In this document: in pieces, positions 9,351-51,338 of the stretch
Layout: each line of letters begins with the position of its first letter
Numbering within the stretch: position 1 is the stretch's first letter
From: a virus
Taxonomy: Duplodnaviria; Heunggongvirae; Uroviricota; Caudoviricetes
Strand: one strand, 5' to 3'
DNA length: 64,000 bases
IMG/VR virus record: IMGVR_UViG_2681813318_000003
The notes under the pieces: model-generated
The model's input: the letters and a program-made list of their open reading frames with translations, nothing else
Databases searched by the model: none
Told to the model about the DNA's origin: nothing
Translations under genes and position numbers: made by a program

Positions 9351-9457
9351 GTATGCTACCAGCGGTAATTGATAGTCTGTCAACGGTTCGCCGTATGCTG
9401 CCAACTGTTTTTGGTATGCTGCCAGCGGCAAATCAAGTATGCTGTCAGCGGTTGAAT
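9351..9457 (+). repeat. upstream iteron set (4-5 direct repeats, consensus GTATGCTGYCAGCGGT)
   Basis: Copies at 9351-9368, 9392-9409 (degenerate), 9414-9432, 9438-9457, plus a partial copy at 9375-9388; immediately precede the rep start. Confidence 0.8.
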
Positions 9458-9472
9458 GACAAAGGTGTCCAC

Positions 9473-30508: not shown

Positions 30509-30595
30509 TGGCGGAGAGTAATGGAATCGAACCATCATCGCTTGCGCAATGGGACGGTTTTCAAGACCGCTTGAGCACCATGCTCCCTACTCTCC
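30509..30595 (-). tRNA. tRNA-Ser (anticodon UGA), type II with long variable arm
   Basis: Manual cloverleaf: acceptor GGAGAGT/ACTCTCC, anticodon stem-loop GCGGT-CUUGAAA-ACCGT (as in E. coli serT), T-arm GATGG-TTCGATT-CCATT, encoded CCA. Confidence 0.7.
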
Positions 30596-30915
30596 GGCCG
30601 TTGTGGTGGCCGGTACTGAACTCCGACACAGGGTTGTAGCAAACCCCGCAAAGCGCGCACTACTGTAGTTGCGGCACATCAGCCTGTGCATTCATCACAA
30701 CGGTAAGATCACTACCTTTCGACCAGTCATTGTGCACATGAACGACGATTAACCGTAATGATATTATCGTTGTGTTGTGAAGCCAGATGCTTATCTTCTG
30801 GTTGCTTCAAAGAGCTGCACTTCCTCACAACGGTAAGAGCACTGGTCTGACTCTATCGATTTACGGCCTTGTGGGTCAGTATCGCCGATTCGCCCAATGC
30901 TCTTACCTGTTGTGT

Positions 30916-30991
30916 TGGTGCCGGTTAACGGACTTGAACCGCTGGCCATTCGCTTACAAAGCGACTGCTCTACCAACTGAGCTAAACCGGC
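30916..30991 (-). tRNA. tRNA-Thr (anticodon UGU)
   Basis: 76 nt: GCCGGTT acceptor, D-arm GCTC-AGTTGGTA-GAGC, anticodon loop TTTGTAA, T-arm AGCGG-TTCAAGT-CCGTT, encoded CCA. Confidence 0.8.
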
Positions 30992-30995
30992 AATT

Positions 30996-31082
30996 TGGTG
31001 GGGAGTGATGGAGTCGAACCACCCGAGTCGCCATGACAGTAGATTTACAGTCTACACCGCTACCTCTACGGACTAACTCCCC
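30996..31082 (-). tRNA. tRNA-Tyr (anticodon GUA), type II
   Basis: 87 nt: acceptor GGGGAGT/ACTCCCC, anticodon stem-loop GTAGA-CTGTAAA-TCTAC, long variable arm, T-arm GGTGG-TTCGACT-CCATC, encoded CCA. Confidence 0.8.
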
Positions 31083-31087
31083 TAAAT

Positions 31088-31162
31088 TGGCGATGGTGGG
31101 TGGATTCGAACCACCGACCAGTTGGTTAACAGCCAACTGCTCTACCGCTGAGCTACACCATC
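31088..31162 (-). tRNA. tRNA-Asn (anticodon GUU)
   Basis: 75 nt: acceptor GATGGTG/CACCATC, D-arm GCTC-AGCGGTA-GAGC, anticodon stem-loop GTTGG-CTGTTAA-CCAAC, T-arm GGTGG-TTCGAAT-CCACC, encoded CCA. Confidence 0.85.
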
Positions 31163-32376: not shown

Positions 32377-32592
32377 TCATTTTAACACTCCTGATTCTAC
32401 TAATTGCTGTAGCAATACTTTCCCTTTATCAGTTAACTGGTAGTTGGCCGAGCACCACGTTTCAGAAACGTTTGCAACCAATCCTAAACGCTCTAACTTA
32501 GCTCGCGTTTTAGGCTTCCAGTACTCAGGGAACTCCGGCCACTTACTTATTTCATGAAGCGTTTCTTTCTCCCGTTTACTTAATACGATCAT
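32377..32592 (-). CDS. hypothetical protein
   Basis: 71 aa; start overlaps the ligase stop (coupled); 3' end overlaps a copy of the GTATGGAATCATTT repeat. Confidence 0.45.
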   Translation of the reverse strand: MIVLSKREKETLHEISKWPEFPEYWKPKTRAKLERLGLVANVSETWCSANYQLTDKGKVLLQQLVESGVLK

Positions 32593-33911
32593 TCTTTATC
32601 TCCGATTCGATCTTCGGTATCGCGTAAGCAACGCGGCCATTTCAGTCGTGGGTGGCGTAAGCTGCCATCCGGCGTTTTCTCGTGACAATGAACCTCGACA
32701 ATACGACCACGGTACTTCTCTTTGTTGTTCCAGATCTCGTCCAGATATTTATGCTTAATGCCGCTCGCACGAACAATCACACCGTTTTCAAGGCGAATAA
32801 CAATTTTTCCAAGCGTGTTGGCAAAACCAGAGTCCGGGTCGCCCGGCTCAAAATCGATAATTTCACCATCTTCTGAATCTTCGTCTTTTAACTTCCACCA
32901 GCTGCGGGTACGTTTAAACTCGTAAACAGAGTTCGGATCTTTGCCCATCTCCCCTTCTTCGTTATCGTCCAGGCGTTTCATGAAGCGTTCGATGAAGTCT
33001 TCGTGGCTATGGATGATGTAGAACGGATGCAGGTGAATGTCTTGTGCGTAGCCTTCACTGCGATCGTTTTTGAACAACGCCACGAGCATAGCCAGGCGCT
33101 CTTTCAGCTTCATACATGTCTTTGCATACTCTTTGGATTTAGCCTGTGCTCGCCATTCCGGTAGGAAGAAGTCGAAAACATGATAAATAGCGCCAATTGC
33201 CTGCACGTTCTTTTTGCGCAATGCAGATACGGACTGGTTAAATGAGCCGGCTGTTCCTTCACCATCGAAGAAGATGTGTTTGTGGCCTGAAAGTTTGCCT
33301 AATTCGAGCATTGCTGGCTTTAGGTGATCGAGAGACGTGATTGGATTACCAGTACGAGAAAGGAAGTTAACCTCTTCCTCGTCAACAATAACCTCGCAAA
33401 TTACTCGCAAACCATCGAGCTTAAGACTGCCAATCATCGGCCATTTTGCTTTAGGGTTTGGCTTGAAGGGGTATTTGTCGCCTTTTTCTTTATACGGTGA
33501 CGCCAGCTGCACCTCGAATTTCGGAATGGGATTTTCAAAAACCTTGTTGCATAGGCTAATCCCAACACCCGCTTTCGGGTCTTTTAAGAGGAAACGACGG
33601 AACACGTCCTGCCCATCGGCGCACATTGATGCCACGATAGACTCAACAGCAGCTATTGCTGCGTTCCCCGTCAGCTCGCGAGAGGCCAGCTTATTCAGTA
33701 CATCAATGGCTTTTTCGTCACTTGGGACGGACTCACTAAGCGGCTCTGCCACTTTGTATTTCTTTACCCCAAAACGGATGAAAGGGTTGAGCATCAATGA
33801 AACCATGCTTTGTTCAAAGTCATCCATGTTGGCCAATGCCTCTTTTTTTGCATTGGTTCCCATAGCTTTCATTTCGTCCAGCTTATGCTTAAGTGCGATC
33901 AACTTTTTCAT
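32589..33911 (-). CDS. ATP-dependent DNA ligase
   Basis: 440 aa; adenylation motif I GSLKLDGLR (KxDG), motif V-like WWKLK, OB-fold C-terminal region. Confidence 0.85.
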   Translation of the reverse strand: MKKLIALKHKLDEMKAMGTNAKKEALANMDDFEQSMVSLMLNPFIRFGVKKYKVAEPLSESVPSDEKAIDVLNKLASRELTGNAAIAAVESIVASMCADGQDVFRRFLLKDPKAGVGISLCNKVFENPIPKFEVQLASPYKEKGDKYPFKPNPKAKWPMIGSLKLDGLRVICEVIVDEEEVNFLSRTGNPITSLDHLKPAMLELGKLSGHKHIFFDGEGTAGSFNQSVSALRKKNVQAIGAIYHVFDFFLPEWRAQAKSKEYAKTCMKLKERLAMLVALFKNDRSEGYAQDIHLHPFYIIHSHEDFIERFMKRLDDNEEGEMGKDPNSVYEFKRTRSWWKLKDEDSEDGEIIDFEPGDPDSGFANTLGKIVIRLENGVIVRASGIKHKYLDEIWNNKEKYRGRIVEVHCHEKTPDGSLRHPRLKWPRCLRDTEDRIGDKE

Positions 33912-34390
33912 TGTTGTTTTGCCTCCATATGTTGATCGATTTGCTCATGTGTTTCTTTTGTTGTTTCTTCAAGCAACGCCGCATACACGTCAGTGATCGC
34001 TGTTTGTGATGTGGCGCTCTTCTTAACCATGCTATTAATCGTTACACTGTCACGTTTTCGTTTTATAGTTCTGGCTTGTTTATTCCGTTCTTCAACCTCC
34101 TTAATGAGTGCGGTCATATCTTCGAAATACAGAGATTCTCCTTTACGAATCTCTTCAACCATCATTTTTAACGCCTTGCATTTGCCTGCTTTGATAGCGG
34201 TTGCGCACGACTGGAATGAAGTTCGAGGAAGACGGTTTTCTTTGAAGGCAAGAATGGTGTGCTGGCAAACGGAGTAGCTGCAATATGCCGACTCACCGTT
34301 TATCTTTACTTCCTCACAACGAAGTGAATAACCATTATTTCCTGAAATAGAGGGGATTTTTGACAAATCAGCTTTCACAACCACCGCCAC
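33908..34390 (-). CDS. hypothetical Cys-rich protein
   Basis: 160 aa; C..C..C..H..C cluster near N-terminus; overlaps ligase start. Confidence 0.5.
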   Translation of the reverse strand: MAVVVKADLSKIPSISGNNGYSLRCEEVKINGESAYCSYSVCQHTILAFKENRLPRTSFQSCATAIKAGKCKALKMMVEEIRKGESLYFEDMTALIKEVEERNKQARTIKRKRDSVTINSMVKKSATSQTAITDVYAALLEETTKETHEQIDQHMEAKQQ

Positions 34391-34445: not shown

Positions 34446-35228
34446 TTACCAACTTCCCCAGCTAATCATCTTGCGCTGATTGCTTTCTAAGCGATAGGGG
34501 GCAAGAAGCTCTGTGACATGATTGGTGGCGTATGATTTGGCCTCTTGCTCTATCATCGGTAATTCGTTAGCAATCCTGACCATCTTCCCAGCAAATTCCG
34601 CCATTACGCCATCACACGCCTTACCCGCATCAACAATGATATGCACAAGATCCAACTGGCTTTTGCACATGTCCCAAAGAGTCGAATATTCGCTCTCCCT
34701 GATTAGGTTTACAGCATCATTAGCCCCTTTATTAATCAAAACCTCCAACAGATTTGTCGGGGTGACGAAATCGGCTTTCAGAGACAATGTTGGTTCAGCT
34801 TTTACCGACAGCAAGTAATCTTCAAAGTTTTGCTTGTCTTCCAGCAAAGCTAAACTACGCATAGCTCGAATTGATTCTCGAATAACGGCTTCAATATGTT
34901 CGTCACCTGGAGGACAGATAATGGTATCTGTATAGATGACTCTGCCATCAAACCACGCCCCAACCTGCACTTTTAGAGTTCGTAAGTTTTCTTTGCGTAC
35001 AAAAACAACTAATGCAGAACGTCGTGCATGTGCAGGTTCGCCCCATACGCACAACTTAACCTTCAGATAAGGTAGCCCCGGTAGAGGGATCTCGACCAAA
35101 CGAGTGGCGATATGATCCATTGCCGTATTGACGGCTTTTTCAATGATGTCTAGCCGATTGCTCTCGCTGATTTCTAAACCAGTTTTATCAATGATGTTGC
35201 AGGCTAATCTCTTAATTTCTTCTTTCAT
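34446..35228 (-). CDS. hypothetical protein
   Basis: 260 aa ORF; TAAGTA..TACTTA palindrome 40-60 nt upstream. Confidence 0.55.
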   Translation of the reverse strand: MKEEIKRLACNIIDKTGLEISESNRLDIIEKAVNTAMDHIATRLVEIPLPGLPYLKVKLCVWGEPAHARRSALVVFVRKENLRTLKVQVGAWFDGRVIYTDTIICPPGDEHIEAVIRESIRAMRSLALLEDKQNFEDYLLSVKAEPTLSLKADFVTPTNLLEVLINKGANDAVNLIRESEYSTLWDMCKSQLDLVHIIVDAGKACDGVMAEFAGKMVRIANELPMIEQEAKSYATNHVTELLAPYRLESNQRKMISWGSW

Positions 35229-35353
35229 ACCAACTCCTAGCTAACGGATGAAAGTATTCTTACAAAAACTTAAGTATGTATCTACTTATAATTTTAGGTG
35301 CAATAGTTCCCTATACGAGGATGCCGGGCTTATAGTCTGCCCGGCATTCACCA

Positions 35354-35767
35354 TTAATGAGCTACAGCCTCACTGTTGCACATCTTTCTGTAGACCTGCT
35401 TATAACGCTGTAAGTCATGAGGATCATTAGGTGCCAACGACTTCGATAGGATTTTGTATACCACCCCTTTCGAAAACATGCCCTTTGGCTTCATTTCGAG
35501 TTCAACAACATATGAGTGATAGCCCACGTATGCACCAAAGCCATTTTTGGCGTTCAATTCTCCGCACACAAAGCCTGTCACACTTCCATCGTCATGATCA
35601 GTCCTGACAAACTTATCTTTCCTAAACATCACCGACGTGGGATCTTTCATATCATCCGCAATTGCTTGTTGGCCCAGAGCAATAGCCTTCTCGTCTGTAG
35701 GCTTACACCCCACTAAAGCAAACAAAGACAATAAAGCTCCTGTTAAAATCAGCTTATTTTTGCTCAT
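35354..35767 (-). CDS. hypothetical lipoprotein
   Basis: 137 aa; signal peptide with lipobox LVGC; possibly periplasmic/outer-membrane accessory (for example exclusion) function, speculative. Confidence 0.55.
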   Translation of the reverse strand: MSKNKLILTGALLSLFALVGCKPTDEKAIALGQQAIADDMKDPTSVMFRKDKFVRTDHDDGSVTGFVCGELNAKNGFGAYVGYHSYVVELEMKPKGMFSKGVVYKILSKSLAPNDPHDLQRYKQVYRKMCNSEAVAH

Positions 35768-35999
35768 GTTGGCTTCCCTTTATTTATATTTATTGCAGGT
35801 ATTAGTTAATCAAAACACGAGCAGTGCCACAATAATTAAATGGCGTACTATTTCTTATGGTTATTAGTTTCCCGGTAACTTTACCGACCATAAACTAAAT
35901 CAACAAAGCTGACATATTAACTAAATTTAAGTACCCTTTTCGCACACTTGACGCTTGCCGCGTCTAAACTGTTCATCCTATATCAACAGAACAAAAAAT

Positions 36000-37145
36000 A
36001 TGAAATACATAAAATCTTCATCGTTGCTGGCATTAACTTTGCTTTTTAGCTCTGGATTCGTTAACGCAGACAATAAACAAACGCTGATAGAAGCCGCTAA
36101 CGCAGGGAATACCGCAGCACAAAGTGAGTTAGGGACAAATTATTTTGATGGTATCAATGGTTTTGATAAGGATGTAGTTGAGGCCAAGAAGTGGATTGAT
36201 CTAGCTGCAGAAAAGGGAGATAAAGTAGCATATTATGCACTTGGAGTTATGTACACATTTGGCGAGGGTGTAGATAAAGACCTAAATAAAGCTGTTGAGT
36301 ACTACAAACTTGCGGGGGACGCTCGTGAAGGTAGAGCCTACAACAATCTTGGTGCTATTTATCAAAAGGGGATGCTTGGTAAAGTAGATCATGCACTCGC
36401 CATTAAATACTTCAAACTAGCCTCTGATGCCGGGTATGTTAAAGCAACTTCAGTTCTTGGGGCGTATTACCAATATGGTGAAGGCGTTCAAAAGAATTAT
36501 AAAAAGGCTTTTGCTTATTACAAAAAAGCGGCGGATCAAGGTAGTTCAGATGGTATGTTCGCATTAGGCACCTTATACGATGATGGTTTAGGTGTTAAAC
36601 GAAACGATGCCGAAGCAATTAAGTGGTATAAAAAAGCTGCTGAACTCGGAAACGTCGATGCCATGACAAATCTTGGCATTATGTATGAGAATGGCGAGGG
36701 TGTTAAAAAGGATTATAAAAAAGCAGCCGATTTTTATCAGGCCGCTTGCGATAAAGGAGATAAAAGCGGCTGTAAATACATTGCAGAACTGAAAGAAAGC
36801 GGCAAATATCGAGCGCCGGCTTCCAAAGCCAAAACAAAATCCGCCACCCAGCGACTTATTGCTAAATCCATTGATAAGGGCGTTAACGCTACATTTACCT
36901 GGCAGGGTGATGATGCTACCTTCACCGCTAATGATGGCAAAGTTGACTGCACCTTCCTGAAGGATTTTTCAGAGAAAGGAGGCAATCTGGCTACCTCGTT
37001 TGTTTGCACCGATAACGTTCAAATCATCCTGAAGCAATTCAGAGATACCAAAAATGCCTACCTCGCGGTAATGACTGACAACTTCAATACTGAAGTTAAA
37101 TCATTTTCGGTCAATGTGTATGTGACTAATACTGGTTCAAACTAA
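36000..37145 (+). CDS. Sel1-like repeat (SLR/TPR-like) secreted protein
   Basis: Signal peptide MKYIKSSSLLALTLLFSSGFVNA; about six Sel1-type repeats (A..WY.KAA..G...A...LG.MY..GEGV.KD). Start set at ATG 36000 rather than track start 35955. Confidence 0.65.
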   Translation: MKYIKSSSLLALTLLFSSGFVNADNKQTLIEAANAGNTAAQSELGTNYFDGINGFDKDVVEAKKWIDLAAEKGDKVAYYALGVMYTFGEGVDKDLNKAVEYYKLAGDAREGRAYNNLGAIYQKGMLGKVDHALAIKYFKLASDAGYVKATSVLGAYYQYGEGVQKNYKKAFAYYKKAADQGSSDGMFALGTLYDDGLGVKRNDAEAIKWYKKAAELGNVDAMTNLGIMYENGEGVKKDYKKAADFYQAACDKGDKSGCKYIAELKESGKYRAPASKAKTKSATQRLIAKSIDKGVNATFTWQGDDATFTANDGKVDCTFLKDFSEKGGNLATSFVCTDNVQIILKQFRDTKNAYLAVMTDNFNTEVKSFSVNVYVTNTGSN

Positions 37146-38318
37146 TGCAGCTATGCCTTTTACCTTGCTTAAAAGTTCAAGCTGTCGTGAGTAAGGTTTT
37201 GCGCAATAGTAGGCTTTGATAATCTGCCCCGGGGTCGCATCGCCGGGGTCTAGTCCTTCCTCGCCCAAACATGCAATTTTCACATTAAGACCGATACTGG
37301 TCAGTCGCCTGGCTGCGGCCATAGTGTTTCGTATAGCTTGCTTTTCACTATCCCACATCATGATCACATTACGTAATCCACGCGTCTTGAGCGTCAGGAA
37401 CGCGCCTAACTGATCTTCTGCATCCTGAGTGGTGTTGCCAGATAGATGCATCCCGAACGTTCCTATTGGTTCCACATAATCACGTAATGTTTCTTCGTCA
37501 AAAATAGCTCGTTTGACCCCCATAACATCGAACGCCCCCTCACAGACAACTACAGTCTGTTTGCCGACTGCATTATGGCCGTTGTAGAGAAACTTACCTG
37601 AAGCTGGAAGCTGCATAGGAAAGAGGTAGCGGCGTTCTGCTGTACCGGTAATGTCTCGTCCCTGAAATGTCTTCATTACCCCATCCAGATCGTAAACCGG
37701 TATCAGTATTCGCATATCGAATATCTGTCCTTTAACCTGATCTGTATACGGATCTACATAGGCGTGCTTGCCTTCGACGCAGTATCGTAGGTCAAAATAC
37801 TTTGCCATTTCAGGCGATATGTTTCGTTCAACCAGATAGTCTGGAAGACGGCCATCTATAGGAAGTTCGTAATGACGAGGGAGTGCAAGTGGTCCCTCTA
37901 ACTCGACTGTGCTTGCAAGCACTATCTCTTCTTTCTTTGGTGCCCACCCCTGGGAAAGAAGAGCGTTCTGCACATATTCCTCGAACTGTCGTCGTGATTT
38001 ACCGCTGTAGTGCTTGAGGAAGACCAGCTTATTGAACTGAATCTCTTCGGGATGATCACCAGCGAAGCATTTGCCGACGCCACTGGTCAGATTGAAATAT
38101 ACCTTCCAGTTGGAGCTGCCGCATACCGGACATTCCTTGATATTCACTTCACGACCGCGAGCACTCACGCCTCCACGTCGATAAACGATACCTTCAGTGT
38201 CCAACCATTGTTCAAAATCTAATTCGGTAATTAGCTCTTTCAGCTCGCTCACGATAATTCCACTTTTAACAGGCAATATTGTGACCAACCTAAATGTTGA
38301 TATAACATAAAGGCTCAT
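37137..38318 (-). CDS. DNA primase (DnaG-like zinc finger plus TOPRIM)
   Basis: Zinc-binding CPVCGSS...C...H near N-terminus and TOPRIM VVVCEGAFDVMG. Start set at ATG 38316-38318 preceded by the conserved AAAGAAAAACAC RBS motif (track start 38390). Confidence 0.8.
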   Translation of the reverse strand: MSLYVISTFRLVTILPVKSGIIVSELKELITELDFEQWLDTEGIVYRRGGVSARGREVNIKECPVCGSSNWKVYFNLTSGVGKCFAGDHPEEIQFNKLVFLKHYSGKSRRQFEEYVQNALLSQGWAPKKEEIVLASTVELEGPLALPRHYELPIDGRLPDYLVERNISPEMAKYFDLRYCVEGKHAYVDPYTDQVKGQIFDMRILIPVYDLDGVMKTFQGRDITGTAERRYLFPMQLPASGKFLYNGHNAVGKQTVVVCEGAFDVMGVKRAIFDEETLRDYVEPIGTFGMHLSGNTTQDAEDQLGAFLTLKTRGLRNVIMMWDSEKQAIRNTMAAARRLTSIGLNVKIACLGEEGLDPGDATPGQIIKAYYCAKPYSRQLELLSKVKGIAALV

Positions 38319-38399: not shown

Positions 38400-39740
38400 T
38401 TAGGTAACGTCTAAGATCCGCTCAATGAAGCGCATTTGTTCGAGGTTTTGTTTAACACGAATGCTGATCCCTCCCTGCTGGTTACGTGAACCAGCAAAGT
38501 AGAGACGAGCCTCTCCTTTCGCTTCTTCTTCTTCGGTTTTGTTGATCGTTATTACCAGGTCAGCAATACGTACTTTTTCGATGTTGTCGGCGGCGTGCAT
38601 CATTGTGGCAACTTCTGACGCGCCACCTTCACGGTTTGTCTGCGATGCCGTGATTCCAGCAACGTTATGTTTGTCATAAAGAGCACGTAAATCGGTGTAG
38701 ATACTACGAATGTTGGCGCGATCATCACGAAGGTCATAACTGGCACGCATCAAATCTGCGTAGTCGACAACAAGCATGTCAGGCACCATGCCATTGGCTT
38801 TCATACTGTTAAGCATACGGTCCAGATCTGCCGGTGACATACTTCCTGACGGACGCTCAACCACCCACAAACTACCAATCCCCTTCGTGGCTCCCAACTC
38901 TGCCAACTTACGATGAACCTCATCGCGCCGTTCCACCAGCTTGGACATTTCTGTCTCCGACAATCTTGCATCAAAACGGTCGGATAAAATGGTGGTGTGA
39001 ACCTCCAGCGAAAGATACAGAACATTGTAGCCAGCAAGCGTTGCATTTATGGAAAATTCACCCATTGCGGTCGATTTACCGGATTTAGCGAACCCCATGA
39101 AGAGCACCATTTCACGCTTCGCCCAGCCTTTTTGGTACAGCAACCTATCGAGCAGAGGGAGTCCAGTTGTAATGCTGTTTGGCACATACTCCTCTGAAGC
39201 CTCATATTCACGCGCTTTCAATCGCTCACTTGCGGAGGTGTAGTAGTCATAGATTCCGGTCGCTTCGTTCGATCCAATCTGCTGAACCTTGGCCATGATT
39301 GCCATCGCCCCCTGAAAGTCGCCTTTCTCTTTCAGTTCAGCAGCCTTAATCAGAGCATCATCAAACGCTACACTTTTTGCGAAGGTTGATACCTGGTCAA
39401 CCATGTACGAGGTATCGGACAATTTTTCTGCAAGAATGCGCTTAAACGCAGCAACAACATCGGCGAATAGTTCCTCACGGATAGTCTTATCGCGTTTCGC
39501 ACGCTTAAGCATATCCAGAATTGCAGATGAAGAGGGCGCGCTCTTGTACATACGGTAATAGCCCGAAACCATATTAACCAATATGGCATTGGCCGCATTG
39601 GCAAATTGGCTAGGCACAACCAGATCTCCCGCACGAGTAAGAAACTCGTGATCACGACAAAAATATGCCGTCAGTCTGTTCTGGAAATCTTCATCAAACT
39701 CTTCGGACAGCCCGCGTCCTGTATGGCAAAGTTCTGTCAT
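38400..39740 (-). CDS. DnaB-like replicative DNA helicase
   Basis: 446 aa; Walker A GFAKSGKST, Walker B LVVDYADL, SQTNR arginine-finger region typical of the DnaB/RecA-fold helicase family. Confidence 0.8.
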   Translation of the reverse strand: MTELCHTGRGLSEEFDEDFQNRLTAYFCRDHEFLTRAGDLVVPSQFANAANAILVNMVSGYYRMYKSAPSSSAILDMLKRAKRDKTIREELFADVVAAFKRILAEKLSDTSYMVDQVSTFAKSVAFDDALIKAAELKEKGDFQGAMAIMAKVQQIGSNEATGIYDYYTSASERLKAREYEASEEYVPNSITTGLPLLDRLLYQKGWAKREMVLFMGFAKSGKSTAMGEFSINATLAGYNVLYLSLEVHTTILSDRFDARLSETEMSKLVERRDEVHRKLAELGATKGIGSLWVVERPSGSMSPADLDRMLNSMKANGMVPDMLVVDYADLMRASYDLRDDRANIRSIYTDLRALYDKHNVAGITASQTNREGGASEVATMMHAADNIEKVRIADLVITINKTEEEEAKGEARLYFAGSRNQQGGISIRVKQNLEQMRFIERILDVT

Positions 39741-40798: not shown

Positions 40799-41872
40799 GT
40801 GGATATTGTCACCATGCGCATGAATAGACTTCCAGGATATGGCCTTCCCGAACTGGCTTTTTGGCCTCAGCCTAAATATGAACGGAATAAATGGTCGATG
40901 TTCTGTCTGAAACTCCGTAATGATGGAACCCTTGCTTGGTATCGGCGATATGTTGATCGTGGTATGCCAAACCACGCTGTTGATGACGACTACGATAACT
41001 ATCCTGAAGCAAGAAAAGCGGCATTAGAGCTGAATAAAAACGTGAGCTTTGACATTGAAAAACTTCCTCTATCTATGTTTCAAAAGAAGTCATTGCGTTT
41101 GAAAGTTGACAAAGCACTCAAAGCCAAATCACGTCTCATGGATGAAGAGTATATAATGCTCAACGAAGCAATTAAGGCACACGCCAACGATCCGCGAGTG
41201 ACATTAAATGAGTTAATAATTAACCCAGATTACGAAACTTTGCGTCAACCCCTTTTTGACGTGCTAAGCGAGATGCCTTACTTACATTTTGTTTTTCTTC
41301 CCAAATTCCAAGTTTCACTTCAACTCGTTGCTCCTAACACTTGGGAATGTTCATATAACAACAAAGCTAAGACAGCGAAGATCTGCTACCAAGAACGCAT
41401 AGCCAGAGGTTTTGGTTTATCAGGTGCTGCACATTGGGGAAAAACAAAAGCGACTATTCGCTCAATGCTGCTGCCGCGTGCTAACCGGTTACTGCAACTC
41501 GCCAGCGTAAAAAGAATGCTGGATGAAGCTCTCAGGAATGGGCAAAAGGTACTGGTTGTTGGCAACTTTGTTTTCTGGTTTGAGGACAAAAATCAGGTAG
41601 GTTGGAGTGTTAAAGTTGCTAGCGAAAGCGAAACCACCTCAAGAGGCAATACGCTCTGGAAAGAAGGAACTATCATTTCAAAAAATCACGGTCGAATTGT
41701 CGTGCTGCCGTATACAAAAGAAAACGGTAAACATGTAAAAGGTTATACCAAGAATGCCCCTAACGACGGCAATGCAATTCCGAGACATAAGGATGAGTAT
41801 GTTGAGTTGCCCTTTGAAATTTTGGATGGTGACTTGATGTTCAGTCTGTTCGGTGAGCTTAACTACGAATAG
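40799..41872 (+). CDS. hypothetical protein (plus-strand orphan)
   Basis: 357 aa ORF convergent with the partition operon; start uncertain (GTG 40799 or ATG 40814/40820; no clear RBS). Confidence 0.5.
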   Translation: MDIVTMRMNRLPGYGLPELAFWPQPKYERNKWSMFCLKLRNDGTLAWYRRYVDRGMPNHAVDDDYDNYPEARKAALELNKNVSFDIEKLPLSMFQKKSLRLKVDKALKAKSRLMDEEYIMLNEAIKAHANDPRVTLNELIINPDYETLRQPLFDVLSEMPYLHFVFLPKFQVSLQLVAPNTWECSYNNKAKTAKICYQERIARGFGLSGAAHWGKTKATIRSMLLPRANRLLQLASVKRMLDEALRNGQKVLVVGNFVFWFEDKNQVGWSVKVASESETTSRGNTLWKEGTIISKNHGRIVVLPYTKENGKHVKGYTKNAPNDGNAIPRHKDEYVELPFEILDGDLMFSLFGELNYE

Positions 41873-41932
41873 CTTTCATAGAACGAAATATTTCTAAGGC
41901 TGTCCAATGCAGACCAGCCTTAGAGATTTATA

Positions 41933-42292
41933 TCAACCTTTCTTCATTAACTCGCGTTTAATTTCATCGGTACGCATCGTGACATCGGCAGCAGTGATCG
42001 CCTCGTTAAGCTTCACGATGTCCTCGATTTCCTGCGGTGACTTCTCTGCCAGATGGAAAATGGCTGCTCGAATCACGTCAGAACGAGTGAACTTCTCGAA
42101 GCGAGGGATGAACTTCATCATCTCCAGCAGTTCGAAGTATTCGTCTTCCAGTGACATTGTGCGGCTTTTAATTTTCTCTTTGCCACGAGTCGGGCGTCCC
42201 TGTGGTCTGACTGGTTGGCGCAAAGGAGTTGTGTTCTTAGCCGGTGCATCAGGCTCTTTGCGCTTTGCTAGGTCACCCATTTTCATGGACAT
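41933..42292 (-). CDS. small partition protein, candidate centromere-binding protein (ParG/ParB-like)
   Basis: 119 aa; basic flexible N-terminus (KRKEPDAPAKNTTPLRQPVRPQGRPTRGKEK) and helical C-terminal domain; immediately downstream of and coupled to parA. Confidence 0.5.
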   Translation of the reverse strand: MSMKMGDLAKRKEPDAPAKNTTPLRQPVRPQGRPTRGKEKIKSRTMSLEDEYFELLEMMKFIPRFEKFTRSDVIRAAIFHLAEKSPQEIEDIVKLNEAITAADVTMRTDEIKRELMKKG

Positions 42293-42960
42293 TATTCTTC
42301 TTCCTCCAGACTCAACAGATAATCTACAAATTCTTCAAACTCGGCTTCCGCCTTTTTGTCGCGCTCGCTACCGGTCATTTCAAAGATAGAACGACCAGAC
42401 TCTTCCGCATCATCATAGACGTTGCGGTTATATAGATTGACTGGCGCAGACTCGATGCCAAACGTCTCAACAATCTCTTTAGCCGCCAGAATGCGAGACA
42501 CTTGTGATGGCAAAGCCGGGCACTGGTTCATGACCGCGCGGACCTTCACTTTATCGTTTACATTACGAACATTGTCGATAATAGGATCAATGTCACGCAG
42601 AGATTTCAAATCACGACGCTTAGGACGAAGCGGGATAATGATAACGTCGGCCATCAGCATCGCTTGTCGCTGAATTTCGGAGTCAAAGCCACCAGCATCT
42701 ACCACTACAAACTCAGCTCTACCCTGAAGCGATTTTAGGTGCTTAATGATGTCATCCTGAACGTATGCAAAAGGAATCAGCTCAAGGTCTTCGTTCTGTC
42801 GACGGTCTTCACACCAGCTTGTTGTCGTGCGCTGAATATCTATATCAGTGATATAAACCTTCTTCTTCTTTTTGACTTTCAGGCAAACGGCAATTTGCTG
42901 GGCAACGGTGGATTTGCCAGGCCCGCCCTTTGTGCCGCCAACCACAAAGATCTTGGTCAT
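42292..42960 (-). CDS. parA: ParA/ParF-family partition ATPase
   Basis: 222 aa; deviant Walker A GGTKGGPGKST at N-terminus and ParA-like core. Confidence 0.8.
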   Translation of the reverse strand: MTKIFVVGGTKGGPGKSTVAQQIAVCLKVKKKKKVYITDIDIQRTTTSWCEDRRQNEDLELIPFAYVQDDIIKHLKSLQGRAEFVVVDAGGFDSEIQRQAMLMADVIIIPLRPKRRDLKSLRDIDPIIDNVRNVNDKVKVRAVMNQCPALPSQVSRILAAKEIVETFGIESAPVNLYNRNVYDDAEESGRSIFEMTGSERDKKAEAEFEEFVDYLLSLEEEE

Positions 42961-47180: not shown

Positions 47181-50100
47181 TTATTCTTTAGGTGAATTTA
47201 ACTTCGTTTCAAGCTCCTCAACCCTTTTGGTCAATTGCTGAATATGATGAATGAGTGGTACAACCAAACGCTCATACATCACCCCTTCAGCGACCATACC
47301 ATTTGAGGAAATATCTTCTGGAGAATCATTATTTGTTGGTTCACGCCAATGGACATATTGCGGGGCAATCTCACCTACCTCTTCAGCAATAAGGCCGTAA
47401 TACCCCCAATCCTTTCGGTCACCTCGACAAATTGAACGATACCAAACAGGTCTTAATGACAAAAGTTCATCAGCATATCGATCTTGTAATGTTTCAATAT
47501 CCTTTTTATAGCGCCTTGAAGATGTTGAACGCCAAACTGTATTGATACCTGGGTTTGGATCAATGTACATATTGGCACCGCTAGTAGTTGTGCCAATATC
47601 CCATATAGCAAACCCTCCACTACCGCCTGATTTGACAACCAGTGTTTCAGCAATAATATCCAGGTTGCCACTATAGCCTGTCAGTGATGATCTGCTTGCA
47701 TAGGAACTTAGAAGGTTTGTTACCTCTGTTTTCGTGTAAGCATTAAGGTTAGCCGCAGTCAAAGTAATATCGGCAGAGCCATCAAACGCCACACCAGCAA
47801 TTTTCCTTGCTGTCTGCAATTTTGTGGCTGTTGCGGCATTACCAGTAGTATTCTGATTACCGGTTGTATTCACACCAGGGATTGAATCCTTAGCAGTATA
47901 TACCTGCGCCCACGCTGACCATGCCGCATCTGTGGTATCTCTTCGTGAGCGAATGAAAACTGGCGCATGTGCACCGCTCGTACCACTCCAGCCAATAAGC
48001 AACTCGCCCTCACCAGCAGCACTCGCACCTTTCATGTGCAATACGTTGCCATACGTGGTCGGATAGCTATTGTTGTACGCCTCGTACATTTGAATGCCAG
48101 CAGTGCCTTGAGTAGAGCCGCTTAATGCCGTAACTCGGCCACGAGATACCAGTGTATTAATGTTGATATCGCCTGAGCCATCAAACTTAACACCATTGAT
48201 GTTTCTCGCTGTTTGCAACTTCGTAGCTGTTGAAGCATTACCGTTCAAACTACCATTTACGCCACCAGTCACATTTAGTCCATTACCAATTGATACCGCA
48301 CCGCTGGTATTATTAATTGTAATAGGTCGCAAACCGTTCCATGAACCTAATGTGTCTCCTGATGCTGTTAGCATGAAATATGTGTTCGATCCATCATTAC
48401 GGATAAAGAACCCAAAGCTACCGTAAGCAATGCGGAAACCATTTGCATATTTTGAAATGATCTCACCAGAAGACGTTAATCCGCCAGTTAACGCTCCTCC
48501 AGATAGTGGTAAAGCTCCGACATCAGCCGCAGTAGGCTTGTTTTTAGTGTTATACGCTCTGCGCCATCCTGGTGAATAGCTCGTCCCGTTAAATACATAG
48601 ATAAACTCCGCATTAGTGAGAGCACCAGAGACACTCGTCGTTGTGGCCGTTGTTATACGGATCGTATAATTGTTTGAGCTACTACCGTTATTAAATACCT
48701 CTATAACAGCTCCTGCTAATGGAATAACGCCACAACCAGTTTCACTATTTGGTATGGTTGCACTATTGGCATAGGCCCACGCACATCGAGCAATCCATGA
48801 CTTTGTGTTAAATGCTCCATTATTTTGCAATAACGTCACTAACTGTGCTGTTGTTATTGCTCCGCCATTACTTCCTGTAGTTAACCAACCAGTAGGAGAT
48901 GCCGGGCAACCTATATTTGCTGGCGACAAGGAAATATTTGCCGAGCCGTCAAACGACACCCCATTGATAGTACGCGCAGTCTGCAACTTCGTAGCAGTAG
49001 CCGCGTTGCCCGTTGTATTCTGATTACCAGTCGTATTAACACCTGGCAAATTAATATTCGCAGTACCATCAAAGCTCACGCCGCCGATAGTTCTTGCCGT
49101 CTGAAGTTTTGTAGCAGTTGCAGCATTACCAGTGGTGTTCTGATTACCCGTAGTATTTACACCTGGAAGGTTGATATTTGCAGAACCGTCGAAACCAACT
49201 CCACCGATAGATCTTGCCGTCTGCAATTTCGTTGCTGTACTTGCATTACCATTTAATGTTCCGGTGATCCCACCAGTAACAGACAACGGACCTGAAACTG
49301 TTCCTCCGGTTGTTGGCAGTGCTCCAATATCTAACGGCGTCGGTTTCTGATGTGTGCTATACATCGTATAAACAACACCATCGGTAACGCTGGAAGGCTT
49401 ACTAGCTGAATATGTTGGCGATGTATAAATAGAAACTGTCGCATTTGCAGTACAATCCCAATGGATATTTACACGAGTCGCATAATTGCCAATCTCAACG
49501 TAAATATCATATGTATCGCCGGATGTGTTGATCCAGGCGAAATTCGTTAATCCGACAGCTGTACGCTTCCACAAAGCACCTGTAATCCCTTTGGGGTTTC
49601 CATTGCCTGCTCGTAGAACCAGTTCTGAAATGCCTGCCTGATGTGGGGAGCCGACGTTGTAACCAGCGCCACCAATCAATGCGATGTAAACGATGGAACT
49701 CGCTTGTGGCATTGTAACAGTAGCCAGTTTGAACCACCCGGCCCCGCCAGAGAAAGACATCGTTATTGAATTTAAAGTACCAATATCTTTCGGCGTTAAT
49801 GTGATATCCGCAGTCAGTGCTTTCCCGTTAATTTTTCGGTTAGATGGCACCCTGCTGTTCGCATTGTCATTGACTACTTTAACTGCTTTTGGCGTTGCGG
49901 CCAGCGATTCACTGGTGCTGTCGACAGCACTGCTAAGTTTCACAACACCTTTAGTTGTAAGGCTTGCGTCTTCCATCGCAACTGCACCGGCAATCTCTTC
50001 AGCACGATCAGCAGCAGCTTCCGCACGGGTCGCAGCGGATTCAGCAGCAGTTTTGCTCTGAGATGCTGCCGTCGCACTGCCTGCCGCCTCTGTTGCTTTC

Positions 50101-51338
50101 GTGGATGCCGTCGTGGCGCTGCCCTTCGCTGCTGACGCCTGTCTGGTCGCCTCATCTTTTGAAGCAGACGCAGATGATGCCGATGACGCTGCCGAACTGG
50201 CGGATGATGCGGCTGCCGTTTTTGAGGATTCTGCACGGGTTTCCGACGCTTTCGCGTTCGTTTCGGATGTCTTCGCTGCGGAAGCAGACCTCGCTGCTGC
50301 GCTGGCCTGTTCAGTGGCTTCGCCAGCCTTCGTTGTGGCTGTTGAAGCAGACGATGCGGCACTTTCTGCCGATTTTCCGGCGGCGGTGGCACTGGCTGAG
50401 GCCTGCCCGGCACTTGTTGACGCGGCACTGGCAGACGACGCAGCCGCTGTTTTTGAGCCTGCCGCAGCCGAGGCGCTCTGTCCCGCTGCCGTTTCAGAAG
50501 ACCTGGCGTTCGTCTCGGACGTTTTTGCCGCCTTCGCGGAATTTCCTGCCGCCGTTGCCGAGGAAGCGGCATTACTGGCGCTCGAGGCTGCGCTCGTTTC
50601 TGATGATTTCGCTGCCTCTTTTGAGGCCGCCGCATCCCGGGCTGAGGTGGCAGCTTCTGACGCCTTCGTGGTCGCGGTGGATGCAGAAGTGGCTGCAGAT
50701 TTTTGTGACGCTGCAGCATTCGTTTCAGACGTTTTCGCGGCACCGGCACTGGTGGCCGCCGCGCTTTTTGAGGACTCTGCAGCGGATGCACTTTGAGACG
50801 CTTGAGAGGCTTTTTCTCCAGCGGTATTGGCGCTTTCTGCTGCTGCGGCAGCACTGGCCGCCGCCTCACGAGCTTTGTCGCCAGCAGCATCAATCGCGTC
50901 AGTGTTATTTTTATACCACTCAACGTTTTCGTTGTGCTCGTTGACGATCTGCATTAGCGGCTTAACGGTCACTTCTGTACCGTCTTCACGCTCGATTGTC
51001 ACCTCATCCAGAGCAGTCAACCAACTGCGCATGGACTTGGAATCAGCCGACATACGCGACATTAGTGCTGTAAAGCGCGCGCTAAACTGTGTTAAGTCGC
51101 CTTCATAGGTCGTAATGATTCGGCACGGAACTTCAGACTGAGTTTCGCCGGTATAGGGTTCTGAGAGAACAATGTTCGTATCACTGGTTACGCGCTTGAT
51201 CTCATACAGCTTATTGTCGGGGCCAATGACGATCATCCCCGGCAACACACCATTAGCTGTTACGTTCCAGGCTGTCCCTGCCCCAACCAGAGTATTGCTG
51301 CCCTGTGTAAATGTGATAGTACCTTCCCTGTACCACAT
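47181..51338 (-). CDS. long tail fibre protein with Ala/Ser-rich low-complexity region, tandem repeats and C-terminal peptidase S74 intramolecular chaperone domain
   Basis: 1385 aa; about 330 aa Ala/Ser-rich region; repeated NINLPGVNTTGNQNTTGNAATATKLQTAR units; C-terminal STSSRRYKKDI...YGLIAEEV motif typical of self-cleaving S74 chaperone domains (T5 pb1 / endosialidase type). Confidence 0.8.
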   Translation of the reverse strand: MWYREGTITFTQGSNTLVGAGTAWNVTANGVLPGMIVIGPDNKLYEIKRVTSDTNIVLSEPYTGETQSEVPCRIITTYEGDLTQFSARFTALMSRMSADSKSMRSWLTALDEVTIEREDGTEVTVKPLMQIVNEHNENVEWYKNNTDAIDAAGDKAREAAASAAAAAESANTAGEKASQASQSASAAESSKSAAATSAGAAKTSETNAAASQKSAATSASTATTKASEAATSARDAAASKEAAKSSETSAASSASNAASSATAAGNSAKAAKTSETNARSSETAAGQSASAAAGSKTAAASSASAASTSAGQASASATAAGKSAESAASSASTATTKAGEATEQASAAARSASAAKTSETNAKASETRAESSKTAAASSASSAASSASSASASKDEATRQASAAKGSATTASTKATEAAGSATAASQSKTAAESAATRAEAAADRAEEIAGAVAMEDASLTTKGVVKLSSAVDSTSESLAATPKAVKVVNDNANSRVPSNRKINGKALTADITLTPKDIGTLNSITMSFSGGAGWFKLATVTMPQASSIVYIALIGGAGYNVGSPHQAGISELVLRAGNGNPKGITGALWKRTAVGLTNFAWINTSGDTYDIYVEIGNYATRVNIHWDCTANATVSIYTSPTYSASKPSSVTDGVVYTMYSTHQKPTPLDIGALPTTGGTVSGPLSVTGGITGTLNGNASTATKLQTARSIGGVGFDGSANINLPGVNTTGNQNTTGNAATATKLQTARTIGGVSFDGTANINLPGVNTTGNQNTTGNAATATKLQTARTINGVSFDGSANISLSPANIGCPASPTGWLTTGSNGGAITTAQLVTLLQNNGAFNTKSWIARCAWAYANSATIPNSETGCGVIPLAGAVIEVFNNGSSSNNYTIRITTATTTSVSGALTNAEFIYVFNGTSYSPGWRRAYNTKNKPTAADVGALPLSGGALTGGLTSSGEIISKYANGFRIAYGSFGFFIRNDGSNTYFMLTASGDTLGSWNGLRPITINNTSGAVSIGNGLNVTGGVNGSLNGNASTATKLQTARNINGVKFDGSGDININTLVSRGRVTALSGSTQGTAGIQMYEAYNNSYPTTYGNVLHMKGASAAGEGELLIGWSGTSGAHAPVFIRSRRDTTDAAWSAWAQVYTAKDSIPGVNTTGNQNTTGNAATATKLQTARKIAGVAFDGSADITLTAANLNAYTKTEVTNLLSSYASRSSLTGYSGNLDIIAETLVVKSGGSGGFAIWDIGTTTSGANMYIDPNPGINTVWRSTSSRRYKKDIETLQDRYADELLSLRPVWYRSICRGDRKDWGYYGLIAEEVGEIAPQYVHWREPTNNDSPEDISSNGMVAEGVMYERLVVPLIHHIQQLTKRVEELETKLNSPKE

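Follow-up and report, generated by a model that had tools for sequence, protein, structure and literature searches.

The stretch of DNA analysed here (the window, 64,000 nucleotides) is an SSU5-like phage-plasmid of E. coli, and on its plus strand, at 36000..37145, it carries a gene for a 381-aa protein, predicted to be exported, that combines Sel1-like repeats with a C-terminal barrel domain. The longest open reading frame at this position runs from a TTG start at 35955 to 37145; the ATG at 36000 gives 381 aa, which is the length annotated in RefSeq for the Sel1 protein of related plasmids, and phrog_8741 matches the protein across its full length (E=1e-207). At 36001-37000 the GC skew is +0.16, turning negative in the 1-kb bins on either side, in keeping with the plus-strand island described in the first-pass annotation. 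The neighbours of the Sel1 gene in the window are the primase, a conserved phage-plasmid gene, and the lipoprotein gene. The DNA primase gene (37137..38252, minus strand; 371 aa in the annotation of related plasmids) is convergent to the Sel1 gene, and the 3′ ends of the two overlap by 9 bp (37137..37145); the terminator scan called no terminator after the Sel1 gene. Some 60 nt 5′ of the start codon lies a plus-strand promoter-like block, CTGACA-17 nt-TACCCT (35909..35937), which is the best conserved block in the intergenic region. The pRM13322 allele keeps it as CTGACA-17-TAACCT, the rest of its upstream region being different and lacking the lipoprotein gene. A generic sigma-70 scan called no promoter in the intergenic region, the block scoring below threshold, and the block may be regarded as a candidate for the Sel1 gene's own promoter.

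The lipoprotein gene (35354..35767, minus strand), recognised as such in the first-pass annotation, encodes 137 aa and is divergent to the Sel1 gene, with which it shares a region of 232 bp. Its leader (MSKNKLILTGALLSLFALVG, directly followed by C) has a net charge of +2 and a hydrophobic core, and ends in the lipobox L-V-G-C (residues 18-21), which conforms to the bacterial lipoprotein pattern, a signal peptide ending in [LVI][ASTVI][GAS]C, and is kept in P0125-P0127. The residue at position +2 governs lipoprotein sorting, with Lys directing the product to the outer membrane; here Lys is found at +2, and outer-membrane sorting is therefore predicted. Sequence searches of the PDB and Pfam found nothing for the lipoprotein, and it has no match in PADLOC-DB 2.0. 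A GC-rich hairpin read from the sequence (GCCGGGC, 9-nt loop, GCCCGGC; 35323..35345) is located 8 bp beyond the stop codon of the lipoprotein gene. Since it has no T-run it is an uncertain candidate for a terminator, and it was not called by the terminator scan.

The two genes and the divergent region between them make up an accessory segment of 1,863 bp (35290..37152). Phage Cyrano has 30 bp where the window has the segment, with blastn homology stopping at 35289 and restarting at 37153, and the GC content of the segment, at 41-42%, is below the 43-47% of the flanking 1-kb bins. The borders at 35290 and 37152 show no terminal repeats, whether direct or inverted, and the segment holds no transposase or integrase gene; an origin as a transposon or cassette was rejected on these grounds. 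Some 4% of complete E. coli genomes contain an SSU5-like phage-plasmid. The segment is present in 55 out of 215 such genomes, the set being defined by the helicase of this phage-plasmid type. In some plasmids it is broken by insertion sequences or shrunk to a scar, and in SSU5 and pYLPI6a other cargo genes occupy the slot of the Sel1 gene. The carrier plasmids originate from human and animal isolates. The Sel1 gene is convergent with the primase in 20 of 21 IMG/VR viral contigs, and the contigs with this layout include diverged phage-plasmids in which the primase is 89% and the barrel 74% identical. Present in some elements, absent from close relatives and lying precisely between conserved genes, the Sel1 gene has the placement of a phage moron.

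At its N-terminus the Sel1 protein carries a predicted signal peptide (aa 1-23, 36000..36068, plus strand; MKYIKSSSLLALTLLFSSGFVNA, followed by DNK). The assignment is rule-based, drawing on n-region charge, the h-region and small residues at -3/-1: the N-terminus has a net charge of +2, the h-core LALTLLFSSGFV is a hydrophobic stretch of 12 residues with a mean Kyte-Doolittle value of 2.0, and a V-x-A site marks the likely point of SPase I cleavage, after VNA and before DNK at residue 23. The same leader layout is present in all nine other full-length homologues, despite divergence of the leader sequence itself. The protein thus has the predicted features of Sec-type (SPase I) export, and the signal peptide proposed in the first-pass annotation is borne out.

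The leader is followed by the Sel1 solenoid (aa 26-270, 36075..36809, plus strand), in which six repeats (about aa 39-254) are flanked by an N-terminal capping helix and a C-terminal cap, the repeat boundaries being set by eye. Sel1-like repeat (SLR) proteins (PF08238) are built from tandem repeats of about 36 residues. The profile search confirms the earlier reading of the open reading frame as a Sel1-like repeat protein: the protein scores 179.5 bits (E=4e-54) with Pfam Sel1 PF08238, whose cut-off is 30.7, over six matched stretches, a match far above chance. In PDB sequence searches the best match to the Sel1 part is 6ok3 (E=3e-79); other matches include EsiB 4bwr over residues 26-254 (E=1e-68), 6deh (E=6e-54), HcpC (1ouv, E=3e-41) and HcpB (1klx, E=3e-13). 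The last repeat contains a C-x7-C pair, Cys250 (36747-36749) and Cys258 (36771-36773). Between the solenoid and the barrel is a variable basic linker (aa 271-284, RAPASKAKTKSATQ; 36810..36851, plus strand) with four Lys/Arg and zero acidic residues, which is the least conserved segment of the protein, at 33-58% identity between alleles.

The C-terminal domain (aa 285-381, 36852..37142, plus strand; 97 aa) is an eight-stranded beta barrel in the predicted structure, a model of moderate confidence. The first-pass annotation had pointed to cysteines in the C-terminal region. Besides the pair in the last repeat there are Cys317 (36948-36950) and Cys336 (37005-37007) in the barrel, and these two are invariant across homologues. 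The barrel has no Pfam match, and in the PDB sequence search residues 285-381 matched no solved chain, EsiB included. Its relatives form about 7 clusters among 1.84 billion (1.84e9) representative proteins, and we regard the domain as a member of an undescribed domain family. The folds of the barrel and the lipoprotein were compared with the PDB and BFVD. The fold class of the barrel is common to periplasmic lysozyme inhibitors and a type VI secretion system (T6SS) immunity protein, but many unrelated eight-stranded barrels, including avidins, outer-membrane proteins and designed barrels, score equally against the model. Eight-stranded outer-membrane barrels such as OmpX, NspA and PagL run to about 150 residues, span the membrane with their strands and end in an aromatic residue, the beta-signal. 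A membrane-embedded OmpX-like barrel was rejected because domain size and strand length do not fit, the chain does not end in an aromatic residue and a cysteine pair is present.

As the first-pass annotation had supposed, such a protein is unusual for a phage: among deposited phage genomes, 14 of 50,697 records have a Sel1 match, none of them full-length. Beyond the phage-plasmids, full-length homologues occur at the end of a lambdoid prophage, after its tail-fibre genes, in a P2-like element, flanked by the genes for the tail tube and the tail chaperone, in both cases without the lipoprotein, and near tail genes in Enterobacter kobei. Homologues are also found in Pantoea, including P. cypripedii, and in Pseudenterobacter, where the gene is part of an island with orphan CdiA fragments and does not directly follow a toxin module. 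Since the Sel1 family is cargo in several kinds of temperate phage, it probably provides a trait to the host cell. Comparison of alleles points to a mosaic, with old Sel1 arrays of 5, 6 or 7 repeats placed on a near-identical barrel. Between alleles of different repeat number the array has saturated dS and 51-70% identity, whereas the barrel has a dS of 0.05-0.27 and an amino-acid identity of 97-99%. This contrast is attributed to recombination between old alleles rather than to fast adaptive change; positive selection on the array was rejected, its dN/dS being 0.14-0.18.

Several known systems resemble parts of this arrangement. EsiB (c5321 of extraintestinal pathogenic E. coli, PDB 4bwr), the best functionally characterised match for residues 26-254, is likewise made by E. 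coli and has a signal peptide and Sel1-like repeats, but its repeats continue throughout and it has no barrel, whereas the protein in the window has six repeats and a barrel and is phage-borne. EsiB reportedly has 11 repeats and is said to be encoded on a chromosomal island. The Sel1 protein was not taken as its orthologue, the match being limited to residues 26-254. The Helicobacter Hcp family has a disulfide-forming C-x7-C pair in each Sel1 repeat; the Sel1 protein, with a single pair (250-258, last repeat), does not belong to it. Legionella EnhC and LpnE are exported (periplasmic or secreted) Sel1 proteins, but they have no barrel domain and are not phage-encoded. EnhC is said to be much larger, with about 20 repeats, and 6deh is presumably the structure of LpnE. 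In the periplasm EnhC binds and inhibits a lytic transglycosylase, SltL (review PMC5608400). Klebsiella Sel1E protects against the T6SS toxin VgrG4 (PMC7108748), and Sel1E and Pseudomonas PA5087 share with the present protein a Sel1 solenoid, there neutralising a foreign protein, and the existence of multiple divergent paralogues or alleles (PMC7108748). Their genes, however, adjoin effector genes, whereas no effector or toxin gene adjoins the Sel1 gene, be it in the window or in the lambdoid and P2-like elements, and where Sel1E has a disordered tail the window protein has the barrel. MliC/PliC and other small eight-stranded periplasmic barrels (DUF4251, DUF1842) are unrelated to the present barrel by sequence and by Pfam; it differs from them also in being joined to a Sel1 array and in belonging to a tiny family.

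Phage morons and superinfection-exclusion lipoproteins include lambda bor/lom, T5 Llp and phi80/N15 Cor. These are optional genes between conserved phage genes, often beside tail-fibre genes, with envelope-directed products, and both the Sel1 gene and the lipoprotein gene fit this pattern in their placement, although none of them is a Sel1 protein. Assignment to a known defence system was rejected, as PADLOC-DB 2.0 gave only a 24-bit match of one Sel1 repeat to the N-terminus of PtuA. A role as a contact-dependent inhibition (CDI) immunity protein was ruled out by the position of the Pseudenterobacter homologue and by the fact that an exported Sel1 protein would be atypical as CdiI. Literature searches found no paper linking SSU5-type elements to Sel1 proteins, or Sel1 to prophages and superinfection exclusion.

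The reading we favour, plausible but tentative, is that the Sel1 gene is lysogenic-conversion (moron-type) cargo whose product acts as an exported periplasmic binder or blocker protecting the envelope of the lysogen. The protein would be exported by the Sec pathway with its leader cut after Ala23 and would fold in the periplasm, probably with one disulfide linking C250 to C258 in the last Sel1 repeat and another linking C317 to C336 in the barrel. Once mature, it would consist of two modules joined by the flexible basic linker: a six-repeat alpha-solenoid offering a protein- or peptide-binding surface that is very different between alleles, and a small, soluble beta barrel with hardly any variation. 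The conserved barrel may attach to, or inhibit, a conserved component of the envelope, and the variable array may capture an incoming foreign protein, be it one brought by a superinfecting phage or a toxin or hydrolase that acts in the periplasm; the neighbouring lipoprotein would be a separate optional cargo gene. Support for a protective role comes from the precedents of Sel1E and EnhC, Sel1 proteins that neutralise other proteins, and from the fold class that the barrel has in common with lysozyme inhibitors and a T6SS immunity protein. A broader proposal, which we consider unlikely, is a modular, phage-spread family of periplasmic protection proteins, with the Sel1 protein as its first member, in which the barrel anchors to a conserved envelope component and swappable arrays of 5-7 repeats determine the phage protein or periplasm-acting toxin that is captured on entry; our searches found no precedent for a Sel1-based superinfection-exclusion or immunity system of this modular type.

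One alternative is an orphan immunity protein, spread by the phage-plasmid, that neutralises a toxin which competitors deliver and which acts in the periplasm, for example a phospholipase of a T6SS or an effector of the VgrG type. This would be a specific sub-case of the protective reading. We consider it unlikely, given that no toxin gene is found near the Sel1 gene in the window or any phage context, that the match to PA5087 (5jkp, E=2e-14) is far weaker than those to generic SLR proteins (E=3e-79), and that the Pseudenterobacter homologue does not directly follow a toxin module in its island. If the fold class of the barrel is instead followed towards lysozyme inhibitors, the barrel, with or without the array, might block lysozyme of animal origin, a lytic transglycosylase of the host or the virion lysin of an incoming phage, which would mean a sturdier envelope or blocked DNA entry. 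A peptidoglycan hydrolase inhibitor of this kind is quite improbable: the Pfam scan gave no MliC/PliC match even at E<=10, which rules out membership of that family, by eye the barrel seems to lack the conserved loop motifs of MliC/PliC, and the equal scores of unrelated barrels and the moderate model confidence weaken the structural likeness.

EsiB binds secretory IgA (SIgA) and dampens neutrophil activation (PMC3735183), and its rank as best characterised match, together with the human and animal sources of the carrier plasmids, would suit an animal-host factor like EsiB or Helicobacter Hcp that is released, binds a host molecule such as secretory IgA and modulates immunity. Such a role is hard to reconcile with the lack of an evident route across the outer membrane, with homologues in Pantoea and with a barrel that is the best conserved part of the protein yet absent from EsiB. 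Pantoea is a plant-associated genus. The C-x7-C spacing in the last repeat corresponds to the Hcp disulfide spacing, which counts for a role in the animal host, but the cysteine pair is present in one repeat only, and we judge this reading to have a small chance of being correct. The first-pass annotation had suggested an envelope-directed accessory pair, and this holds in that the segment is accessory (absent from Cyrano, replaced in SSU5 and pYLPI6a) and both products appear envelope-directed. An obligate two-component module, with the lipoprotein anchoring the Sel1 protein at the outer membrane, could explain why the divergent genes occur together on their shared 232-bp region in 14 of 20 IMG/VR phage-plasmid contigs and in 55 plasmids, and a decayed chromosomal copy (L012) keeps fragments of both genes back to back, so the two have moved together at least once. 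It is nonetheless very unlikely, and functional pairing is not supported, each family occurring without the other. In at least 5 of the 20 contigs the lipoprotein is missing and the Sel1 gene occupies its usual slot, as it does in pRM13322; an intact Sel1 gene with no lipoprotein is present in pRM13322, L026, L028, L029, L037 and L038 and in all lambdoid and P2-like contexts. The lipoprotein family stands alone in other phages, SEN4/SEN5 and Fraca, and the lipoprotein is nearly identical across alleles whose Sel1 arrays are swapped.

SSU5-like phage-plasmids are studied as carriers of resistance and other host traits, and the Sel1 gene is among their common optional cargo, found also on lambdoid and P2-like prophages of the Enterobacterales. 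Should the protein provide none of the protections considered here, it would be one more uncharacterised Sel1 protein. If it does protect the lysogen against phages, toxins or lysozyme, it would represent a new type of protein among phage-borne host-protection genes, and a role would be assigned to an undescribed barrel domain.

The Sel1 gene (36000..37145, plus strand) lies in a longest plus-strand open reading frame of 35955..37145; from the ATG at 36000 given in the ORF list it encodes 381 amino acids, also the length annotated by RefSeq in related plasmids. All of its neighbours are on the minus strand: a DNA ligase gene (32589..33911), two conserved genes with no assigned function (33908..34390 and 34446..35228), a lipoprotein gene (a 137-aa ORF, 35354..35767), a DNA primase gene that ends at 37137 and a DnaB-like helicase gene (38400..39740). 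Among the 1-kb bins here a positive GC skew (+0.16) is confined to 36001-37000, and GC content at the Sel1 region drops to 41-42% versus 43-47% in the adjoining bins, so the plus-strand island recognized in the first-pass annotation is real. At its 3′ end the gene shares 9 bp, including its stop codon, with the final codons of the convergent primase gene, and a terminator scan detected no terminator 3′ of the Sel1 gene. The lipoprotein gene is placed divergently, as had been described, across a 232-bp region in which a generic promoter scan found nothing, its counts being not above chance. The most conserved part of this region, CTGACA, 17 nt, TACCCT at 35909-35937, is a candidate promoter; the pRM13322 allele keeps CTGACA-17-TAACCT although the rest of its upstream sequence differs. 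In RefSeq the Sel1 gene already goes under “tetratricopeptide repeat protein” or “sel1 repeat family protein”; in PHROG it forms family phrog_8741. The gene sequence is therefore not new.

The protein had been described as secreted, with about six Sel1-type repeats and a cysteine-containing C-terminal region, and all three elements are upheld. Its N-terminus, MKYIKSSSLLALTLLFSSGFVNA followed by DNK, has a net charge of +2, a hydrophobic core of 12 residues and a V-x-A site, and by this rule-based check is read as a Sec signal peptide with predicted cleavage after residue 23. The same leader layout is kept, despite differing sequence, in nine other full-length homologues and is absent from truncated fragments. 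The Pfam Sel1 profile PF08238 matches in six stretches (E=4e-54, 179.5 bits, cut-off 30.7), and a PDB sequence search aligns solved Sel1 structures with aa 26-270, the top match being 6ok3 (E=3e-79), with others to E. coli EsiB (c5321, 4bwr; E=1e-68), 6deh (E=6e-54) and HcpC (1ouv; E=3e-41). The protein belongs to the Sel1-like repeat family; it is neither an EsiB orthologue nor an Hcp protein. With repeat boundaries drawn by eye from sequence and alignment, the array consists of an N-terminal capping helix, six repeats (about aa 39-254) and a second capping helix; Cys250 and Cys258 in the last repeat form a C-x7-C motif kept in every homologue.

A basic, poorly conserved linker (aa 271-284) leads into a 97-residue domain (aa 285-381) in which conservation across the family is highest, with 36 invariant alignment columns that include Cys317 and Cys336. 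This domain has no match in Pfam even at E<=10, nor in the PDB by sequence. An AlphaFold2 model from 13 sequences, of moderate confidence (pLDDT 69, pTM 0.61), predicts eight beta strands; since Cys317 and Cys336 fall on adjacent antiparallel strands in roughly matching register, a disulfide between them is plausible. Structural matches of the model include avidins, and the best matches among predicted viral structures are proteins of about 106-120 aa. One, from Escherichia phage Mt1B1_P17, is uncharacterised (E=5.5e-6); another, from Serratia phage Moabite, is named a “putative lysozyme inhibitor” (E=8e-4). Such matches to a predicted model indicate fold class, not function. A membrane barrel is unlikely: the domain falls short of the length required, six of the eight strands span just 6-7 residues, and it lacks a C-terminal aromatic residue; it is not classed as an outer-membrane barrel. 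Searched against 1.84 billion representative proteins, the barrel profile gave nine hits, of which two align a short motif with Ig-like repeats. The first hairpin (window 36864-36905, aa 289-302, GVNATFTWQGDDATF) resembles VNGTFTWSGDT, which recurs in repeated bacterial Ig-like (Big_5) domains and is the source of these two weak, probably spurious hits (P0131, P0132). The other seven are Sel1 proteins with a C-terminal barrel or fragments of such proteins, including a distant protein of 430 aa in which signal peptide, Sel1 repeats, C-x7-C and barrel follow in the same order. With only these genuine relatives, all linked to Sel1 repeats, the barrel is a rare, undescribed domain tied to the Sel1 architecture.

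Over the primase and helicase region the window shares 97.5% identity with Escherichia phage Cyrano and about 80% with Salmonella phage SSU5, which identifies it as an SSU5-like phage-plasmid. The 2.1 kb surrounding the Sel1 gene match plasmid pECOH89 (NC_023916.1), along with many other E. coli plasmids about 110 kb in size, at 98% identity. Cyrano has its primase gene right beside the homologue of 34446..35228, and homology ends at 35289 and restarts at 37153, so that 1,863 bp in the window face 30 bp in Cyrano; no terminal repeats were found at the borders of this segment. The position just past the primase stop codon (37137-37152) is a cargo hotspot of SSU5-like elements. SSU5 carries an unrelated protein of 345 aa there (phrog_22938, without a match in Pfam or PADLOC), pYLPI6a a sulfatase gene, its anaerobic sulfatase maturase gene and an IS5 element, and pE16EC1016-4 a deletion scar of about 250 bp. 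The helicase is found in 215 of 5,426 complete E. coli genomes and the full segment in 55. The barrel is encoded on 21 IMG/VR viral contigs, convergent with primase in 20; two of these are diverged phage-plasmids (primase 89%, helicase 92-93%, barrel 74% and Sel1 array 48% identical), and the gene has therefore long resided in this slot. Cyrano may have lost it, in which case lacking the gene would not be ancestral.

Further features stand out elsewhere in the window. Four tRNA genes (Ser-tga, Thr-tgt, Tyr-gta, Asn-gtt) lie at 30509-31162 on the minus strand; in the matching cluster Cyrano is annotated with Ser, Thr and Asn only, and the tRNA-Tyr appears to be an addition. The adjacent 445-aa ORF (28992-30329, plus strand; phrog_18168, a family with no assigned function; no match in Pfam or PADLOC) is possibly a further optional gene. 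A second plus-strand island (40799-42389), flanked by a conserved backbone gene and the ParA gene, carries a 357-aa ORF (phrog_22329, likewise with no assigned function) and a 160-aa ORF for which PHROG, Pfam and PADLOC gave no match; at the matching place Cyrano is annotated with different genes, including a RelE/ParE-type toxin gene. The interval 50001-51000 (GC 0.60, well above the window average; AT skew -0.35; only a weak 21-nt tandem repeat found) lies within a 1,385-aa ORF (47181..51338, minus strand) that is probably a tail or tail-fibre gene. A 404-aa ORF (9353-10567, plus strand) with a Rep3-type replication initiator domain (PF01051, E=5e-9) is presumably the element's plasmid replication gene.

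Outside the phage-plasmid slot, full-length homologues with the barrel (46-55% identity) occur at a lambdoid prophage end directly after the tail-fibre genes, in a P2-like element between the tail tube and tail assembly chaperone genes, in an Enterobacter kobei prophage near its tail genes, on a further contig next to genes for P2-type tail-fibre assembly, in a Pseudenterobacter island that also contains insertion sequences and orphan CdiA fragments, on the 1.5-Mb Pantoea cypripedii replicon CP024770, on a 387-kb Pantoea plasmid, and in Escherichia whittamii adjoining a primase remnant. The family is thus carried at optional positions by at least three unrelated temperate phage types and, as far as seen, is limited to Enterobacterales. 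The same lambdoid prophage encodes another Sel1 protein, of 311 aa, two genes downstream (L007 and L008, 8047-8982); it has neither signal peptide nor barrel, and the best local alignment gives 36% identity across 197 residues. The E. kobei copy (L010, 4775-5922) is split by an insertion sequence with an rve-type transposase gene, and IS1414 (E. coli plasmid) or IS1B (E. fergusonii plasmid) breaks the gene in NZ_JBUBIR010000005.1 (H75) and NZ_CP056962.1 (H126); such interruptions indicate that the Sel1 gene is dispensable for its carriers.

Four phage-plasmid alleles, of 381 (two), 417 and 345 aa with 6, 7 and 5 repeats, were compared codon by codon. Their barrels are 97-99% identical (dS 0.05-0.27, dN/dS 0.03-0.28) and their lipoproteins differ by at most two residues, whereas Sel1 arrays (aa 24-223) of different repeat number are 51-70% identical, with dS >1.4 or saturated and a dN/dS of 0.14 where dS could be estimated. 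The pattern is a mosaic in which recombination has joined old, purified arrays to a barrel and flanks of recent common origin, and it is no evidence for positive selection. Distinct Sel1 arrays are maintained side by side.

The lipoprotein leader ends in the lipobox L-V-G-C followed by Lys. By the +2 rule of lipoprotein sorting, the protein should be destined for the outer membrane. It matches phrog_2320, a family with no assigned function, and has no sequence match in Pfam, NCBIfam, PADLOC or the PDB; a low-confidence model (pLDDT 65) of a helix, a four-stranded sheet and a helix gives cystatin/NTF2/VirB8-like fold matches (Z <=7.7). Relatives in other phages are found where cargo is typically carried: P2-like SEN4/SEN5 have one between ogr and the integrase gene, and lambdoid Fraca has one flanked by tail genes. 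That the two proteins form an obligate, envelope-directed pair, as first proposed, would fit their adjacency in 14 of 20 phage-plasmid contigs and in most plasmids. In a decayed copy on a chromosome (L012, 5804-6369, Logan ERR4250679 contig), flanked by ompW/yciC-type genes and a 4HBT thioesterase gene, a lipoprotein fragment (aa 48-77, 87% identity, minus strand) adjoins the last Sel1 repeat and barrel (aa 228-381, 76% identity); both genes thus moved together at least once before their 5′ parts were deleted. However, the Sel1 gene is intact with no lipoprotein gene in pRM13322, in five IMG/VR phage-plasmid contigs (a sixth is cut by the contig end) and in every non-plasmid phage context, and the lipoprotein family is also found alone in other phages. 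A functional pair is thus not borne out and an obligate one is very unlikely; the evidence favours separate cargo genes that often travel together.

The Sel1 gene encodes an exported two-module protein carried as optional cargo by temperate phages. Its best explanation, a tentative one, is a periplasmic binder or blocker guarding the lysogen's envelope, which fits the gene's position next to tail genes in several phages, the predicted outer-membrane lipoprotein that often accompanies it, and the precedents of Sel1E, an immunity protein to VgrG4 (PMC7108748), and EnhC, an inhibitor of SltL (PMC5608400). Counting against it, a defence-model search gave no meaningful match, a literature search found nothing linking Sel1 proteins with SSU5-type elements, or with prophages and superinfection exclusion, and homologues occur outside recognisable prophages. 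An orphan toxin immunity protein is an unlikely alternative, and judged by gene context the gene is not one of the T6SS immunity genes. Inhibition of a peptidoglycan hydrolase or lysozyme is improbable, the barrel not being a member of MliC/PliC, and EsiB-like binding of a host factor (PMC3735183) is to be doubted to a similar degree.

The barrel domain and its fixed fusion to Sel1 arrays appear to be undescribed, as do the family's dissemination as cargo among several kinds of temperate phage and its mosaic allele pattern. The protein is inferred to reside in the periplasm with two disulfides and, like Sel1 solenoids in general, to act by binding another protein. A conserved barrel combined with an exchangeable array suggests one constant and one variable contact, respectively. 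On the protective reading, the protein would intercept something that enters the envelope.
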